This document shows positions 36,001 through 42,000 of a stretch of 64,000 nt of DNA, piece after piece; positions within the stretch are counted from its first letter, which is position 1, and each line of letters starts with the position of its first letter. The position numbers are program-made. The DNA comes from Candidatus Eiseniibacteriota bacterium (lineage in GTDB: Bacteria > Eisenbacteria > RBG-16-71-46), in NCBI GenBank assembly GCA_963717935.1, contig CAVQXP010000004.1:992001-1056000 (forward strand), written 5' to 3'.

Positions 36001-39000
36001 TACAACCCGATCGCGGACCTGCACCTCACGGCGAACGTGGCGAACGGCTACCGCGAGCCCAACGCGCAGGATCTCTTCTTCAGCGGACCGGGCTCGGTGG
36101 GCTTCGTGCTGGGAAACCCGGACCTCAAGCCCGAGCGCAGCGTGTCCTACGACGTCGGGCTGCGCTGGGGGCCGGGCACGCTGGCCATCTCGGGCAACCT
36201 GTTCTACTCGACGTTCAAGGACCTCATCAATGCGTTGCCCTGCCATCCGGCGCCGGCCGAGGCGATGGGCGACAGCGCCTACCGCTACGTGAACATCGCG
36301 ACGGCCACGATGTGGGGCGGTGAGGCCGAGGCGGAGTGGCGCTTCCACCCGCGGTGGACGGCGCGCGCCGGGATGGCGGGCACGGTGGGGGACATCACGA
36401 ACCGGGCGGCGATCCTCGAGGTCTACGGCATCAGCGCCGACCGGGTCCCGCTGGAGCTGGTGCCGCCGTTCCGGGGCTCGGCCTCGCTGCGCTGGACCGG
36501 GCCCGCCCGCCGCCTCTGGGCCGAGGCGGGTGCGCGCTACTCGTGGCGGACGAACCGGCTGCCGCCGGTCACGCCCGGGGCGGAGCAGCTCACCGCCTTC
36601 AAGAAGGAATGGATCGTCGGCGACCTGTCCGCCGGGACCCGGCTGGAGACCGGCCAGAGCCTCGTGCTGGGCGTGCGGAACTTCACCGACCGCCGCTACC
36701 GGCAGCCGCTGGGCTCGGTGGTTGAGCCGGGCGCGACGTACTACGTCTCGCTGAGCAGCGACTTCTAGGTCGTCGCAGGACGAGCGGGGCGCCTCACCCG
36801 GGGCGTCCCGCTCGCGATCGATCGATGTGCCGGCCGCGTCCGACCGCCGGCGCGACGTTCTCCTACCGCCTGAGCCCCGCACCGCTCATGGCCCGCTGCA
36901 CGTGGGCGGCCGTCAGGCCCGGCTGGGTCGGGCCCTGGATGTACTCGATCGCGGACCGCAACAGTCCCACGATGTACTTCGGGTTGTGGACGCCGTGGCT
37001 GCGGTCCTCCTTGGCCAGCAGCAGGTTCCACACCGCGCCCGCCGAGTCGGCCGAGGTCTTCACCGACTGCGGCGCGCCGTCCGCCATGAGGTTCGCGGCC
37101 ACGAGGCGCGCCTCGAGATCCGTGATCAGGACGTCCACGCTGTCCTGGGAGAAGTCGTCTCCGACCTGGCTGAAGTCGGAGATCTCGCCGTGGCACTTCG
37201 CGCAGGCCGCGGTGTTGAGGATCTCGGCCTCCCCCTCGCCCCACGCCATGTTGAACGAATGCCCACCGACGACGTTCTGGCTCGTCGTCCTCATGTGACA
37301 GTCGAGGCACCCGTCGACCGTCGCCGAACGGTGGTTCGACCGCTCGTAGGTGTAGCCGGCGTACTCGTAGCCGTTCGAACCGATCAGCATGTCGCCCTGC
37401 GGACCGTGGTGCGGGCCGAAGCGGCTGGTCAGCGTCGTCTGTGCGGTGACGTACGTGCTGACGTTGCGCCGCGACTGGTGACAGGCCACGCAGAGATTGG
37501 CGGCCTTCAGGTCGTACGTCGCGCCATTCTGGAGCGTCGCCACGGCCGTCCAGCGAAGCGCGAAGTCACCGTTGGTGTGCGGCGCGTGGCAGGTGAAGCA
37601 GTGGATCGACGTCGGATTCTCGATCTCGCTGGGAGCCGTCGTCCCGGTCGCCCTTGCCACGAAGCCTTCGCTCGTGTGGCAGCCCTTGCACTCGCCGTCG
37701 TTCTCGTTGAGGGTCTCGCCCGTCGCGTGCTTCGAGTGCTCCCACTGCTGGGTCGCGGCCACCAGGAAGGTGTTGGCGTCACCGTGACACTCGAAACAGC
37801 TCTGCGGCCCCGCCACCACCTGTTCGACGCGCGTGATATTGCGCGAGCAGGCCGCGAGCGCGAGGCCCACTGCGGCGCTGACCACGAGCGCCAGGATCCT
37901 CTTGAACACCACCATCAGCGTATCCTCCTCGGTAGGGCATTCGACGTACTTCGCAGGCTACTTCAGGTGCAGGTCGTATCCGACGTCGATCCGCAGCACG
38001 TTCGCGGTGTAGTAGCGATCCAGCAGGATGTAGTCGTCGTAGTTGTAGGCGTTGTACCGGATCTCGATGTGGTAGTCGTTCGACAGGGTATAGGTGCCCT
38101 CCAGGAACACGATCGACTTCTCGATGTCCAGGTCCCCGCGGACATCCACGTAGGTCGCGCCGCCCGCGAGATGCAGATTCGTGATCCGGTCGAACTCGAT
38201 CCGGCCCGTCACGAACTGGCTCTCGGTGTGGAAGCCGCCCGCGCGGTCCACGTAGTCGTCGGTCGAGAAGCTGTAATCCCCCGAAACGGCTCCCCAGCCC
38301 TCGCGGTCGTACCGGCCGAAGGCGGTCGCGACCTCTCCGTCGACCGAGACGGCGATGTCGGGAAACTCGCGCTCGCGCCTCGAGTAGCCGCCACCCAGGA
38401 CGACGCCGTCGCGGGGCCGCACCTGGAGCCTCGCGCGGATCTGGGAGGCCTCGACGTCCTTGAGGAGGGTCAACTCCTCCTGGTCCTGCTTGACGCGGCT
38501 CGCGTAGTCGACCCTGGCGTTCACGGATCTCCCGTAGCGAAACGCCGTCCCGACGCGCCAGTCTTCGTAGCGGGTGAGTGTCCGGTCGTCGTCGTTGGTC
38601 TCGTAGCCGTAGCTGCCGCTGACCTGGCCGTACCTGTAGAACCAGGTCGCGTCGAGGTCGTTCTGGAACCGGTCGGTCTTGAGCCGCGTCGACCTGTCGT
38701 CGACGCGGTTCGCGTCGAAGCGGTAGCGGAGCTGGAAGGCGTCGACCGGCTGGAGGGTCCCGGCGTACTGGAAGTTCGCCAGCGTGTATTCGAGGTCCGT
38801 GCCGGACAGCCTGCGACTGCCGTAGGCCGCGCGCAGCAGGTGGGTCCACTTGTCGTAGAACGCGCAGGGCGTGTAGAGCCTGGCCGACACGACCTGCCCC
38901 GTGCGGTTCGCCGCCGGATCGAGCTCGTCGGTGTAGCCGGAGGCGCGATAGCTGATCGCCCCGCCCCTCCGATCCTTGTGGACGTCCGCCGTCACCTCGC

Positions 39001-42000
39001 CGCTCTTGAGGGCGTTGTCGTAGCGCGTCCCGAGCACGCTCCCCGTGCCGGAGGGGAACGGCAGGCGGTTCCCGTCGCGCGTCAGGGAGTTGAAGGCCCC
39101 GGAGAGTCCCAGCCAGCGGACCGGAGTGAAGCGGGCTCCCGCCTTCCAGTCCACGCGCCGGGCGTTGACGCCGCCTTCGGGGGAGAAGATCTGCCGGTGC
39201 TGGTCGAGGCCCGCCGTGAGCTTGAACGTGCCCGGCACGCGGTAGACGAGATCGCCCTGGCGCGCGTCCTGGTTGATGTCCCGCAGGTCGAGCGCGAAGT
39301 AGTGGCGGGGATCGAAGGTGCCGTTCAGGCGGATCTGGGCGAGGGAGAACCCGTCGTGGACGTCGTAGGTCTCCTGGACGGCGGTGCGGTCTCCTGCCTC
39401 GTTCATGATGATGCCGCCCAGCTTCACCGTGCCGTCGAGCGTCCCCGCCGAGGGTGCGGACGCGGCGAGCGTGACGACGAGCGTGACGCAGGCGGCCGTG
39501 ATCGTCGTCGTTCGCATTCGGGCACCGTCCTAGAACTTGTGGCAGCCGACGTTGAAGCAGCCCTGGCCCCGAAGCGACTCGCTCAGGAACAGGCGGCTGG
39601 TGTACGAGCCGTGGATGTCCGTGTGGCAGCCGTTGCACGGCACGCCCGCCCATCTCGTCCCGTGCATCGGGTTCGAGTCGTGGCGGGGGACCGAATGGCA
39701 CTGCGTGCACAGCTGGAAACGGGGCGCTTCGTAGGGCTGCTTGAGCATCCTCGGCAGGTGCGAGCCGTGTGGTTCGTGACATGTCATGCACCCGCCCTCC
39801 TCCGTCGAGTAGTCGACGGTCGCCGGGTGCTCGAACGGGAACGGTCCCTCGAATTCGCCGTGGCACTTCATGCAGACGTTCGTGCCGTTCGACGCCAGCG
39901 GGCGTCGCGTGGCGTCGAGGGTCAGGTGGCACTCGCTGCACTTGACGATGCCGTCCTTCACCGGGTGGTGGTACGACCTGGCGAACTGGCCCTCGACGTC
40001 CCTGTGGCACCCGAGACACAGACCACTCTCGGCTTGCCGAAGGAGCGCCGGATGCTTCGACGCGTGGACGCGGTGGCACGCGCTGCAGTTGACGTCATTC
40101 GTCGCATGGACGTTCTTCTCGAGCATGTTCTGCTGGTGCGCGCTCTGGTGGCACGCCGAGCACAGGCGCGCCTCGGCGGCGGCGCTGGCCCCGGCCGGAC
40201 GGGTCATGGCGTACGCGCCCGGGTCCTCCTCCCAGTGACGGCGGTCACCGGCGTGGCAATCCGTGCAGGCGATGCGTGCACCGGGGCCATCGAGCCCGTC
40301 GCCGGGCAGCCGGTGCCCGGTCGTGGCGAGAGTCGTGTCCTGGCCGGTGTGACAGTCGAGGCACACCTTGCTCACGCGGGGGTTGTCCCGCGCGAGCGAC
40401 TCGCCCCCGGGTGCGAAGCACAGCGCGCCCAGCAGTGAGCACGCGAGCAGAGACGGGAACACGCAGCGGGAGGGGATCCTGTCGGAGACGGGCAACGCGA
40501 CTCCCTCCGGAAGAGGGGTGAGGACGAAGGCCTCCCCGTCGCGGCGCCGGGAGCGGTGCGTCGCCGCCGCCGGGTGCGCGGCAGCGGATGACCCGGCAGG
40601 GCCGCGATCGTGCGTGAAGGATGGAAGAGGCATGAGTCTCGGAATGCCTTCCAGGGCACCAGGAACGCGGCCAGACGGAAGTCAGGATACTGAAAAGCCA
40701 CCGGGGTGTCTACGTAATAACACGTATACCTTGGGCGTAGTCCTCCCGCCGTTGCCGGCGGCGGATCATGGCCGTTGTCTGCCGACGGGAGCGCCCCATC
40801 CACGTGGGGCCGCAGGGCTCGCGGGAGTCGATTCAGTCTGGTCCATGACCGGCGCAAACGGGCCCGTCCTCACGGACCCGTCAACTTCGACGGGCATCTG
40901 GCCGATAACGCCAGAGCCGCAATCACGACTCCGGGAGGACGCAGCTATGACCGACCCCGATGCGGCGCAGCGTGCGCGCGAGTGGCTCGAACGGCAGTTG
41001 GCCGAGTTGGGTCAGCTACGCAACGCAACGCGGCGCGACCCGAACTTCAAGACGTGGCGGCAGCAGACCCTTACGGTGATCCAGCGCGTCTGGCCTGGCG
41101 AGGCACGCCGGGTGGACCGCTTCCGCCGGATCCCGTTCACTCCGCCGACCCCGCACGCCACGGCCGCCCAGGCGCGCGACGGCTACGAGCGCGGCTGGGG
41201 CGAGGCCGGCGTGCTGCTGCGCGAGTTCCTCGCCGAGATCAACGTGCTCGGTCTGCCGCAGGTCCGGGCGGCCGGGACGTACGCGGGCTCGGAGACCGAG
41301 GCGGCGATGGGCTCGATGCCGACACTGCACGGTCAGGATGCGCCGTGGCCGAGGGTGGCGACAGCGCTGGCGGACGCGGGTGAGCCCGCCGCCCTGCAGC
41401 CGAAGGACGACGGGTTCGGAGACGACATCGGACGTGCCATGGACCGGCTGCTGAGCCGCTCGCCCGTCTTCCGCGCCTCGACCTCCATCCCGCGGCCTGC
41501 GCCCGCGGATGCGGCTCCCGAGCCGGGCTCCCCGGCGGCGGAACTGACGCGGCTCGCGGACGAATTGGAGACGCTGGGGCTCTCCCCGACGCGCGCCGGT
41601 TCGGCGCGGGCGGCGCTGCTCGCGCTGGCGCGGGCGGCGCAGTCGGAGGCGCCACCCTGGGAACTGGTGGGCGAAGTGCTGGGGCACGCCGGCGCCACGC
41701 CGGCGCTCGCGCGGCGCGTCCTGCCCCTGCTGCTCGAGTTCATCGCGACGGCAGCCTAGGCCGGCCCTCGCCCGGGAACGGGCCTCGTCACGCGCGCACC
41801 CTGTGCTATCCTGCGGCTCCTCAGGGGCCCCGCACGAGATGAAACCCGATCGCCATACCATCAAGTCGCAGGAAGCGCCGGAGCTTGCCCAACGGCTCGC
41901 TCGCGACCGCAACCACCAGGAACTGCACCCCGGGCACCTGCTCGCCGCCCTCCTGCAGGAGCCCGGGGGCACGGTCGCCGCGGTGCTCGAGAAGCTCGGC

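Follow-up and report, generated by a model that had tools for sequence, protein, structure and literature searches.

Three adjoining ORFs on the minus strand (positions 40495-36863 of the window, i.e., the 64,000-nucleotide stretch of a Candidatus Eiseniibacteriota genome analysed here) encode, in this order, an MtrA-like multihaem cytochrome (gene A), an outer-membrane barrel (gene B) and a lipoprotein cytochrome (gene C). We consider it likely that the three genes form an operon-like porin-cytochrome conduit, through which electrons would cross the outer membrane, probably fed by quinones and most likely flowing outward. The first-pass annotation had proposed such a conduit from three co-directional genes at 36863..40495, and the ORFs were located there in the arrangement it described. 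Genes A and B are separated by 12 nt, and B and C by 42 nt. A promoter-like site with a weak match to the consensus (TAGACA, 17-nt spacer, TATCCT; 40684..40712, minus strand) lies 5' of gene A, one such site being found vs. 0.2 expected in shuffled sequence.

Gene A (39530..40495, minus strand) encodes a protein of 321 aa when read from the TTG at 40495, with GGAGGGAG a few bases 5' of this codon; the open frame continues to an ATG at 40633, which would give a long form of 367 aa. The N-terminus is signal-peptide-like. The protein matched MtrA in the PDB (6r2q_A, E 6.2e-23) in a region numbered 84-343 in the long form and 37-296 in the short form, and all ten CxxCH motifs aligned with the solved structure. 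It also matched the DmsE-family model of NCBIfam (TIGR03508; 164 bits, E 3e-48) along profile positions 3-257 of 258, a score under the cut-off of 192 bits. Based on these matches, A is homologous to MtrA.

The C-terminus of A contains an additional motif, CFNVGCH (Cx4CH; 39539..39559, minus strand), which is a candidate eleventh haem-binding site that the first-pass annotation had not noted. It lies 22 residues past the canonical MtrA end and also past the end of the DmsE-family profile. Both Cys and the His were invariant in the 46 aligned relatives of A, the motif having the Cx4CH form in 45 and the CxxCH form in one (L061). The motif was not found in 11 canonical MtrA proteins of the phylum, and Shewanella MtrA lacks it as well. 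Such conservation, together with its absence from canonical MtrA, suggests that A is probably an 11-haem wire. Hence, the earlier description of a secreted decahaem MtrA relative agreed with the ten aligned motifs but is probably an undercount. Only ten non-motif His residues of A were invariant among the 46 relatives (H87 was kept in 39), so that a distal ligand for the eleventh haem is not evident. CcmE is present in the genome.

Gene B (37958..39517, minus strand) encodes a protein of 519 aa without sequence match in Pfam, NCBIfam or PDB, the MtrB/PioB models included. AlphaFold2, run with a 68-sequence alignment, produced a 26-strand barrel with a pLDDT of 94. Its best Foldseek match was 6r2q_B (E 1.7e-17, TM 0.82), with the others reaching TM values of at most 0.54 among the matches listed. 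The comparison with MtrB gave a VIA Z of 27.6 and an rmsd of 2.7 Å over 485 residues, the runner-up having a Z of 19.4. In the predicted model, MtrB is thus the sole outstanding structural match of B. Remote homology was supported by hhalign, in which the B family profile matched that of 11 canonical MtrB/PioB barrels of the phylum (97.6%, E 3e-12). Pfam MtrB_PioB was weakly matched by 11 of the 68 family members (best E 3.1e-7) and not by B itself, as had been noticed previously with fewer sequences. The prediction of an MtrB-like barrel invisible to sequence searches was therefore upheld, and we regard B, on profile and model evidence, as a compact remote homologue of MtrB/PioB. As anticipated, B is shorter than the solved Shewanella MtrB chain (519 vs. 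649 residues). The MtrB loops reach ~45 Å according to the structural report (PMC7198977), whereas the putative outer loops of B sum to 85 residues, with 19 acidic vs. 8 basic. A negative surface has been described for MtrB in that report (Edwards 2020, PMC7198977).

We have then examined the recurrence of the locus. From 201 genomes of the phylum, 17 loci were retrieved with both flanks, and 15 of them kept the A-B-C order. In a species-level genome collection, A was beside B in 55/58 loci and C was beside B in 50/58, while no other ORF of the window recurred in more than two loci. Such recurrence places the gene order of the trio far beyond chance. Among the eight loci without C, the contig stops before its place in four, and C did not adjoin the barrel in four loci with full flanks. 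A C homologue was present somewhere in 22 of the 23 barrel-positive genomes. Some MAGs that carry the labels Krumholzibacteria or Latescibacteria have the module too, and the trio recurs in at least three candidate phyla. One metatranscriptome study contained contigs ~94% alike over parts of A, B and C, a weak hint of trio expression, as these contigs come from a relative and DNA carry-over is possible. B has no family match, and 26-strand barrels have other roles (e.g., LptD, TM 0.48), so that B could be conceived as an ordinary porin or transporter that is a chance neighbour of two cytochromes. We disfavour this explanation as highly improbable, given the presence of the trio in at least three candidate phyla with nothing else nearby conserved, the far better alignment of B with MtrB than with other barrels, and the match of its profile to MtrB/PioB.

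The same phylum contains canonical MtrAB/PioAB-type pairs (L099-L110), which are built on the same two genes and whose two proteins are remotely but clearly homologous to A and B. Canonical pairs were found in 63 and the compact trio in 23 of the 201 sampled genomes, and only one had both (1/23 of those with a compact barrel); these counts refer to related, non-independent genomes. The module is therefore patchy in the phylum, in line with the prediction that some, not all, Eisenbacteria carry it; the near-exclusion of the two types was not part of that prediction. A shares 32% identity with the canonical MtrA of the phylum, and the compact and canonical lineages of A separated in the tree with 100/100 support. 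Canonical MtrA scored 260 bits on TIGR03508 vs. 164 for A and ends in ...HGSNHPSGK.., without the Cx4CH. The canonical barrels have 707-754 aa and match PF11854, unlike B, and no six-haem gene follows them, whereas the compact trio includes C.

Gene C (36863..37915, minus strand) encodes a 350-aa lipoprotein cytochrome. The annotated LAAC lipobox (Cys23; 37847..37858, minus strand) and six CxxCH motifs were recovered, and the lipobox Cys, all six motifs and another six His residues were invariant in 26/26 relatives. The reported score against Pfam MtrC/MtrF domain II/IV (PF22113) was reproduced (31.0 bits, cut-off 30). C also matched Pfam cytochrome c552 (PF02335; 26.5 bits, cut-off 24.1) over residues 189-326 and, weakly, NCBIfam ExtKL (E 0.002). 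The C family profile matched OcwA (6i5b_A) with an E value of 4e-7 and NrfA chains with ~1e-3, the resemblance to OcwA being confined to its final haems and the helical bundle at its C-terminus. The predicted model of C had a pLDDT of 52, with only three C-terminal helices confident. Since OcwA and NrfA were the nearest solved relatives, C was rejected as an MtrC relative; the statement that it stands in the place of MtrC was right for gene order and not for kinship. MtrC is a decahaem protein with a four-domain build, whereas C has six haem motifs in 350 aa and an OcwA/NrfA-like end.

The kinship to NrfA raises the question of whether C reduces a soluble compound (nitrite, hydroxylamine or sulfite), with A and B feeding it as DmsEF feeds DmsAB. 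Besides the c552 and NrfA matches, some sources name relatives of C "nitrite reductase c552 subunit", and a slow nitrite reduction is described for OcwA (PMC6703420). Nevertheless, C has no CxxCK, its six further invariant His suffice for all six haems to be bis-His, the match does not extend beyond the C-terminal helical module with its haems, and C is far smaller than the NrfA chains (439-524 aa). We thus find such a function very unlikely.

The surface location of C is proposed by analogy with MtrC, OmcB and ExtC. A somewhat doubtful, though not far-fetched, arrangement would have A and B alone forming the conduit and C remaining periplasmic, membrane-tethered, and feeding A from the inner-membrane side. 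This would be compatible with the canonical MtrAB pairs of the phylum, which work without an adjoining third cytochrome, with the low confidence of the C model, and with the residue at +2 after the lipid-modified Cys, which varies among S, E and D in the relatives and is often D or E. In E. coli, D at +2 leads to inner-membrane retention, a rule that is not general. Against it, the porin-adjacent lipoprotein cytochrome is extracellular in every characterised conduit class, as described for MtrC (PMC7198977) and ExtC/D/F (PMC6148476), and OcwA is described as a cell-surface terminal reductase (PMC6703420). Moreover, the compact family acquired C together with the additional motif at the C-terminus of A, which in MtrA is the outer end. 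Secretins are present in the genome, although they are not specific. We therefore retain an extracellular C as the preferred placement.

The Shewanella MtrCAB structure (6R2Q; PMC7198977) shows a DmsE/MtrA-lineage cytochrome inside a 26-strand barrel, with a lipoprotein cytochrome gene in the cluster, the arrangement proposed for the trio. The Geobacter OmaB/OmbB/OmcB, ExtABCD and ExtEFG conduits, as presented in PMC6148476, have the same three parts (periplasmic multihaem cytochrome, barrel and lipoprotein cytochrome), with ExtC and ExtF as small lipoproteins of five haems, comparable to the hexahaem C. Their barrels are predicted there to have 18-21 strands and their periplasmic cytochromes carry 8 or 12 haems, vs. 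26 strands in B and 10+1 motifs in A; no homology of these conduits to A or B was seen, the weak ExtKL match of C being the only one. The surface reductases OcwA (6I5B) and OmhA (6QVM) of Gram-positive metal reducers carry 9 and 11 haems and do not sit on a porin (PMC6703420, PMC9250108), whereas C has six haems and a lipobox. The Uet complex of Tenderiales (bioRxiv 10.1101/2022.05.06.490989) is proposed to pair an undecahaem cytochrome, UetJ, with the outer-membrane barrel UetC, as A would pair with B. However, UetJ has eleven CXXCH motifs and the preprint's description of it states no homology to MtrA, the prediction for UetC is a barrel of 28 strands, and the Uet genes form a ten-gene cluster of autotrophs taking up electrons.

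We have also investigated the remaining multihaem genes. Only eight ORFs of the genome have at least three CxxCH: A, C, one with four motifs, and five at C4:597-607 kb, the only other multihaem cluster of the organism. The latter encodes a CbcL-like fusion of a 13-haem part with cytochrome b, an 18-haem protein of the NapC/NirT type, and proteins with 19 and 9 haems. The CbcL-like protein was found in 23/23 barrel-positive genomes vs. 87/178 others, again related and not independent genomes, and canonical MtrB in relatives lies 8-30 kb from a CbcL-like multihaem cluster. This cluster would probably connect the conduit to the quinone pool. Complex I and cytochrome bd were also found.

The same conduit could run in reverse, with Fe(II), reduced minerals, humics or a partner cell as the source of electrons. 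MtrAB homologues work in both directions, a point also made in Castelle 2013 (PMC3903129); those of Sideroxydans (MtoAB) and Rhodopseudomonas (PioAB) have no MtrC and are described as serving electron uptake, so the direction cannot be read from sequence. As members of the DmsE family, MtoA and PioA are assumed to lack the C-terminal motif, and both systems to lack a hexahaem partner. Cytochrome bd oxidase and a non-Nuo molybdopterin enzyme are possible electron sinks. On the other hand, neither RuBisCO nor a haem-copper oxidase was found in this 93% complete genome, which would leave lithoautotrophic Fe(II) oxidation without its usual partners, and the other multihaem genes resemble quinol-oxidising CbcL/NapC types, themselves reversible in principle. 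We consider reverse flow unlikely. The suspicion that the lineage had been picked up before in surveys of iron genes was borne out in general terms, Eisenbacteria being listed among taxa with iron-cycling genes (PMC8478452).

Altogether, the conduit interpretation was supported and every testable part of it held, with amendments to the haem count, to the kinship of C and to its surface location, which is an analogy. A would reach the periplasm by export, receive its haems from the Ccm system and run through B, the MtrB-homologous barrel of 26 strands, which would sheathe it and which has hardly any surface loops. Across the membrane, the haems of A would be the wire, its Cx4CH tail most likely adding an eleventh at the outer end. 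There, electrons would pass to C, apparently built like OcwA of Gram-positive metal reducers and unlike MtrC, and most likely onward to Fe(III)/Mn(IV) minerals, humics or a partner cell. As a compact relative of Shewanella Mtr, the module probably lets this uncultured soil/sediment bacterium move electrons over its outer membrane.

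Three ORFs were found on the minus strand at 36863-40495, where the first-pass annotation had placed a co-directional trio, and the feature is real. Gene A (39530-40495) encodes a 321-aa protein when read from a TTG codon preceded by GGAGGGAG, with the frame remaining open up to an ATG at 40633; its product, which carries 10 CxxCH motifs, begins with a signal-peptide-like stretch. Gene B (37958-39517) follows after 12 nt and codes for a 519-aa product that likewise begins with such a stretch but lacks haem motifs. After a further 42 nt, gene C (36863-37915) encodes a 350-aa protein with the lipobox LAAC (Cys23) and six CxxCH motifs. 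The promoter/terminator scan returned a single, weak promoter-like site upstream of A and no convincing terminator after C. A TonB-dependent receptor gene converges with the 3' end of the trio, and an ORF without known family and polysaccharide-synthesis genes lie upstream; none of these neighbours looks related to the trio.

A 463-aa open frame on the plus strand (40368-41759), divergent from A, has no Pfam family, and an RNA-library contig of a relative spans 40939-41500. Also on the plus strand, the ORF at 41803-42315 contains a Clp N-terminal domain only (residues 29-80), and since the space before the next gene is too small for a full ClpB, we regarded it as a remnant or a stand-alone Clp domain. 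On the minus strand, a hybrid sensor kinase that combines multiple PAS domains with a receiver domain (31649-34102) lies ~2.8 kb past the 3' end of the trio; its adjacency to the module is not kept in the other genomes compared.

The relationship of A to MtrA was confirmed. The NCBIfam model TIGR03508 (DmsE/MtrA decahaem family) matched A over profile positions 3-257 of 258 with E 3.2e-48; the score was under the curated cut-off (164.4 vs 192.2 bits), and the canonical MtrA of the same phylum reached 260 bits on this model. Solved MtrA (6r2q_A) aligned with A over 260 residues with E 6.2e-23 and all haem motifs in register; this chain is mislabelled in the PDB copy used, and 6R2Q is the Mtr complex according to PMC7198977. 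A has the ten motif-aligned CxxCH in ~300 residues and the adjoining gene for an MtrB-type barrel that characterize the DmsE/MtrA family.

The protein continues for ~22 residues past the end of MtrA and of the family profile, and this tail has CFNVGCH at its end. Both Cys and the His of the tail motif are invariant among 46 distinct aligned relatives. The motif has the form Cx4CH in 45 of them and is a plain CxxCH in one Latescibacterota MAG (locus L061), a swap that is expected for a haem-binding site. Cytochromes c3 offer known examples of Cx4CH sites, and the own genome encodes CcmE of maturation system I. Based on the invariance of the motif, its natural swap to CxxCH, the cytochrome c3 precedent and the presence of CcmE, A is probably an undecahaem cytochrome with its eleventh haem at the C-terminal Cx4CH. 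Thus, the ten CxxCH motifs reported earlier stand, but the label "decahaem" is probably an undercount. The weak point of this sequence-based reading lies in the sixth ligand, as A has just ten invariant non-motif His; an eleventh, H87, is conserved in 39 of the 46 relatives. A Krumholzibacteria MAG has the A gene split into two overlapping ORFs of 5 haems each (locus L085, 2475-3911), which may reflect a frameshift or an assembly error.

By sequence, B matched nothing in Pfam, NCBIfam or the PDB, and the MtrB/PioB models (PF11854, TIGR03509) gave no match to B at E up to 1 and none in the whole own genome at E up to 10. The profile built from the 68-sequence barrel family did not find MtrB in the PDB, returning one chance match (E 0.2), and PF11854 (MtrB_PioB) was weakly matched by 11 of the 68 members (best E 3.1e-7). 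The AlphaFold2 model obtained with the 68-sequence alignment (pLDDT 94, pTM 0.81) had 26 strands, and MtrB (6r2q_B) was its first Foldseek match (E 1.7e-17, TM 0.82). The later matches listed had TM values of at most 0.54 and were mostly 22-strand TonB receptors, with the 26-strand LptD at 0.48. Superposition of the model on 6r2q_B with VIA-align gave a Z of 27.6 and an rmsd of 2.7 Å over 485 of 519 residues; the runner-up reached a Z of 19.4 with an rmsd of 6.0 Å. A role of the LptD or TonB-receptor type was dropped on these values (TM ≤0.54, Z ≤19.4). In the predicted structure, B is an antiparallel 26-strand barrel that can be superposed on MtrB.

The decisive test of homology was the hhalign comparison with the canonical MtrB/PioB barrels of the same phylum. 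The alignment of 68 compact barrels matched that of 11 canonical barrels with a probability of 97.6% and E 3.1e-12 over 443 columns, at 15% identity. Together, the structural and the profile-profile matches identify B as a remote MtrB homologue stripped of loops. This agreed with the previous proposal that B, despite having no sequence match, has an MtrB-like 26-strand fold. MtrB/PioB proteins have ~650-750 aa and long surface loops, and the canonical barrels of the phylum have 707-754 aa; B has 519 aa and the full-length representatives listed of its family ~500-560 aa. The thirteen putative outer loops of B add up to 85 residues, the longest having 14, and are net acidic. The MtrB loops reach ~45 Å and are negatively charged too (PMC7198977). 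The C-terminus of B (37958-37975) reads ...YDLHLK, without the aromatic end residue usual in outer-membrane barrels; a terminal F was found in just 21 of the 68 compact barrels, and F or W in all 11 canonical ones.

For C, the first-pass annotation required amendment. Its six CxxCH motifs, its LAAC lipobox and its place in the gene order were as described, but its profile resembled OcwA and NrfA, not MtrC. All six CxxCH motifs are invariant in 26/26 relatives, as are the lipobox Cys and six additional His, so all six haems could be bis-His, judging from the conserved residues. The Pfam model MtrC/MtrF II/IV (PF22113) gave a borderline match (31.0 bits for a cut-off of 30; best stretch, residues 31-115), and PF02335 (cytochrome c552) scored 26.5 bits (cut-off 24.1) over residues 189-326. 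For the C family profile, the best solved relative was OcwA of Thermincola (6i5b_A, E 4.2e-7, residues 201-331), followed by NrfA chains (E 7e-4 to 4e-3) and OmhA; no MtrC chain was among the PDB matches of C or of its profile. MtrC, OmcA and MtrF are four-domain surface decahaem cytochromes built of two pentahaem and two beta-barrel domains; C has six CxxCH in 350 aa. Given the OcwA, NrfA and OmhA matches and the borderline MtrC/MtrF score, C holds the MtrC position in the operon but is not an MtrC relative.

For C, AlphaFold2 with 26 sequences gave a poor model (pLDDT 52), in which three C-terminal helices were the sole confident part. PMC6703420 describes OcwA as a cell-surface terminal reductase whose C-terminus forms a three-helix bundle; 6I5B and 6QVM were identified from PMC9250108. 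The catalytic haem of the NrfA/OcwA/c554 group is marked by CxxCK or by an open coordination site; the motif scan found no CxxCK in C, and its six additional invariant His could serve all six haems. C is a lipoprotein encoded in a conduit cluster: its lipobox Cys is invariant in 26/26 relatives, and its gene follows B in 50 of the 58 loci described below. The protein is presumably located at the cell surface. Three secretins are encoded in the own genome; they cannot be attributed to a type II system and so have no bearing on C export.

The trio is conserved across part of the phylum, in line with the earlier statement that some, and not all, Eisenbacteria keep its order. The compact barrel was present in 23 of the 201 genomes sampled from the phylum (22/121 high-quality genomes; 15/82 genera). 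Twenty loci were fetched from this sample, 17 of them with both flanks, and 15 of these 17 showed the order 10-haem-plus-tail protein, barrel, 6-haem protein; one of the remaining two had no C nearby and the other carried a distant copy with 5 motifs. A species-level scan (one genome per species), run with a 19-sequence barrel alignment, yielded 58 loci from records labelled as Eisenbacteria, Krumholzibacteria or Latescibacteria and, in a few cases, from MAGs under other names. A adjoined the barrel in 55 of them and C in 50; four of the eight loci without C were on contigs ending too early. No other ORF of the window recurred near the barrel in more than two of the 58 loci. C homologues (E 1e-30 or better) were detected in 22/23 barrel-positive genomes and, as more distant copies, in 10/178 others. 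Across public genomes and metagenomes, the barrel family comprises at least 146 clusters at 50% identity.

Additional cytochromes accompany the trio in some relatives. Giant cytochromes with 30-31 CxxCH, in ~750-aa open frames cut by the locus end, lie upstream of it in three loci (L035, L037 and L078), a 17-CxxCH cytochrome lies next to it in L046, and a 19-CxxCH cytochrome lies downstream in L054. In one metatranscriptome run, 8% of the sampled words were present, and at a threshold of 90% likeness its contigs matched parts of all three genes at ~94%; bins without coverage carry no meaning. These RNA-library data, contigs only, derived from a relative and from a single study, are a weak hint of transcription of the trio and no proof of it.

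Canonical conduits also occur in the phylum. Pfam MtrB_PioB barrels were found in 63 of the same 201 genomes, a tally that takes in one genome flagged unpublished (G015). In the 12 canonical loci examined, the barrel was always preceded by a 10-haem MtrA ending ...HGSNHPSGK.., with no Cx4CH in MtrA and no six-haem gene after the barrel. Canonical MtrA shares 32% identity with A, and the two lineages separated at 100/100 support in a tree of 46 compact and 11 canonical rows, none of which was dropped. A canonical barrel was present in 1/23 compact-positive genomes vs 62/178 compact-negative ones, the single genome with both systems being G123. This suggests that the compact and canonical conduits are alternatives, the near-exclusive distribution being a pattern and not a statistical test, since the genomes are related. 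In locus L031 at ~2175-8557 (the same place as contig C21 of G123), the two conduit types are arranged in tandem: a canonical MtrA and the beginning of a canonical MtrB come directly after the trio, in the same orientation.

Only eight ORFs of the own genome have three or more CxxCH: A, C, one 4-motif ORF and five at 597-607 kb of contig C4. The latter form the only other multihaem cluster (G000:C4:597241-607192; locus L086, outside the window). Its products are a CbcL-like protein, in which 13 haem sites are joined to a membrane domain of the cytochrome b561 type, three more multihaem proteins with 19, 18 and 9 haems, and a cytochrome b; the N-terminus of the 18-haem protein is of the NapC/NirT type. 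This cluster is likely the inner-membrane and periplasmic feed of the conduit. A CbcL-like protein was found in 110 of the 201 genomes, including 23/23 with the compact barrel, and lies 8-30 kb from canonical MtrB in several relatives. Complex I and cytochrome bd are present in the own genome (93% complete), in which haem-copper oxidase, RuBisCO and ResB were not found. Such a respiratory gene set fits a heterotroph sending electrons outward, although it does not prove the direction. An inner-membrane quinol-oxidising multihaem protein would pass electrons to periplasmic haems, and these to A, which would be threaded through B. From the eleventh haem at the outer end of A, the electrons would then reach C, proposed to lie at the surface, for the reduction of minerals, humics or a partner cell. 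The homologies, the B fold, the extra motif and the conserved trio underlie this scheme as results, and the assembly, the occupancy of the haem sites, the placement of C and the flow direction are inferences.

Conduit clusters of the MtrAB type have been described from related candidate phyla (Zixibacteria RBG-1; PMC3903129), and Cyc2 has been reported in Eisenbacteria (PMC9769843). The first-pass annotation had expected that iron-gene surveys may have flagged Eisenbacteria, and this taxon is indeed listed, with Latescibacterota, among those with iron genes in a FeGenie-type survey (PMC8478452). In the literature searched on these phyla, on Zixibacteria and on MtrA/CX4CH, the compact barrel, the C-terminal motif and the hexahaem partner are undescribed; supplementary tables, which possibly list the genes, were outside its scope. 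Uet is a known undecahaem conduit unrelated to the compact trio, and membership of the trio in it was dropped because the barrel and the gene cluster differ. Beyond the first-pass annotation, the analysis adds the candidate eleventh site, the OcwA link of C, the profile-level MtrB homology and the near-exclusive distribution relative to canonical MtrAB.

The initial reading of the trio as an MtrA/MtrB-type conduit is therefore supported, with amendments. Tentatively, and with somewhat less than even confidence, we propose that it represents a third MtrAB architecture, in which a barrel that lost its surface loops would hold a cytochrome whose eleventh haem, gained on a C-terminal tail protruding from the barrel, docks a hexahaem lipoprotein recruited from the NrfA/OcwA lineage, on which Gram-positive metal reducers also draw at their surface. 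This architecture would stand in for canonical MtrAB in Eisenbacteria, Krumholzibacteria and Latescibacteria, with a barrel invisible to current iron-gene models.

Porin-cytochrome conduits are the Gram-negative route to respire, or feed on, minerals, humics and electrodes, and their counts in environmental surveys rely on models of MtrA, MtrB and MtrC. As the barrel falls outside the MtrB/PioB models and the cytochrome under the DmsE-family cut-off, surveys based on those models would miss the module. If the third architecture is true, extracellular electron transfer would be under-counted in these abundant soil and sediment phyla. The module would also be a natural minimal insulated wire, with a barrel ~130 residues below MtrB and an eleven-site cytochrome of ~290 mature residues, a compactness that recommends it for structural studies and for the transplantation of electron conduits. 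Finally, a Gram-negative conduit linked with an OcwA-type terminal cytochrome would join surface reductases so far held unrelated.
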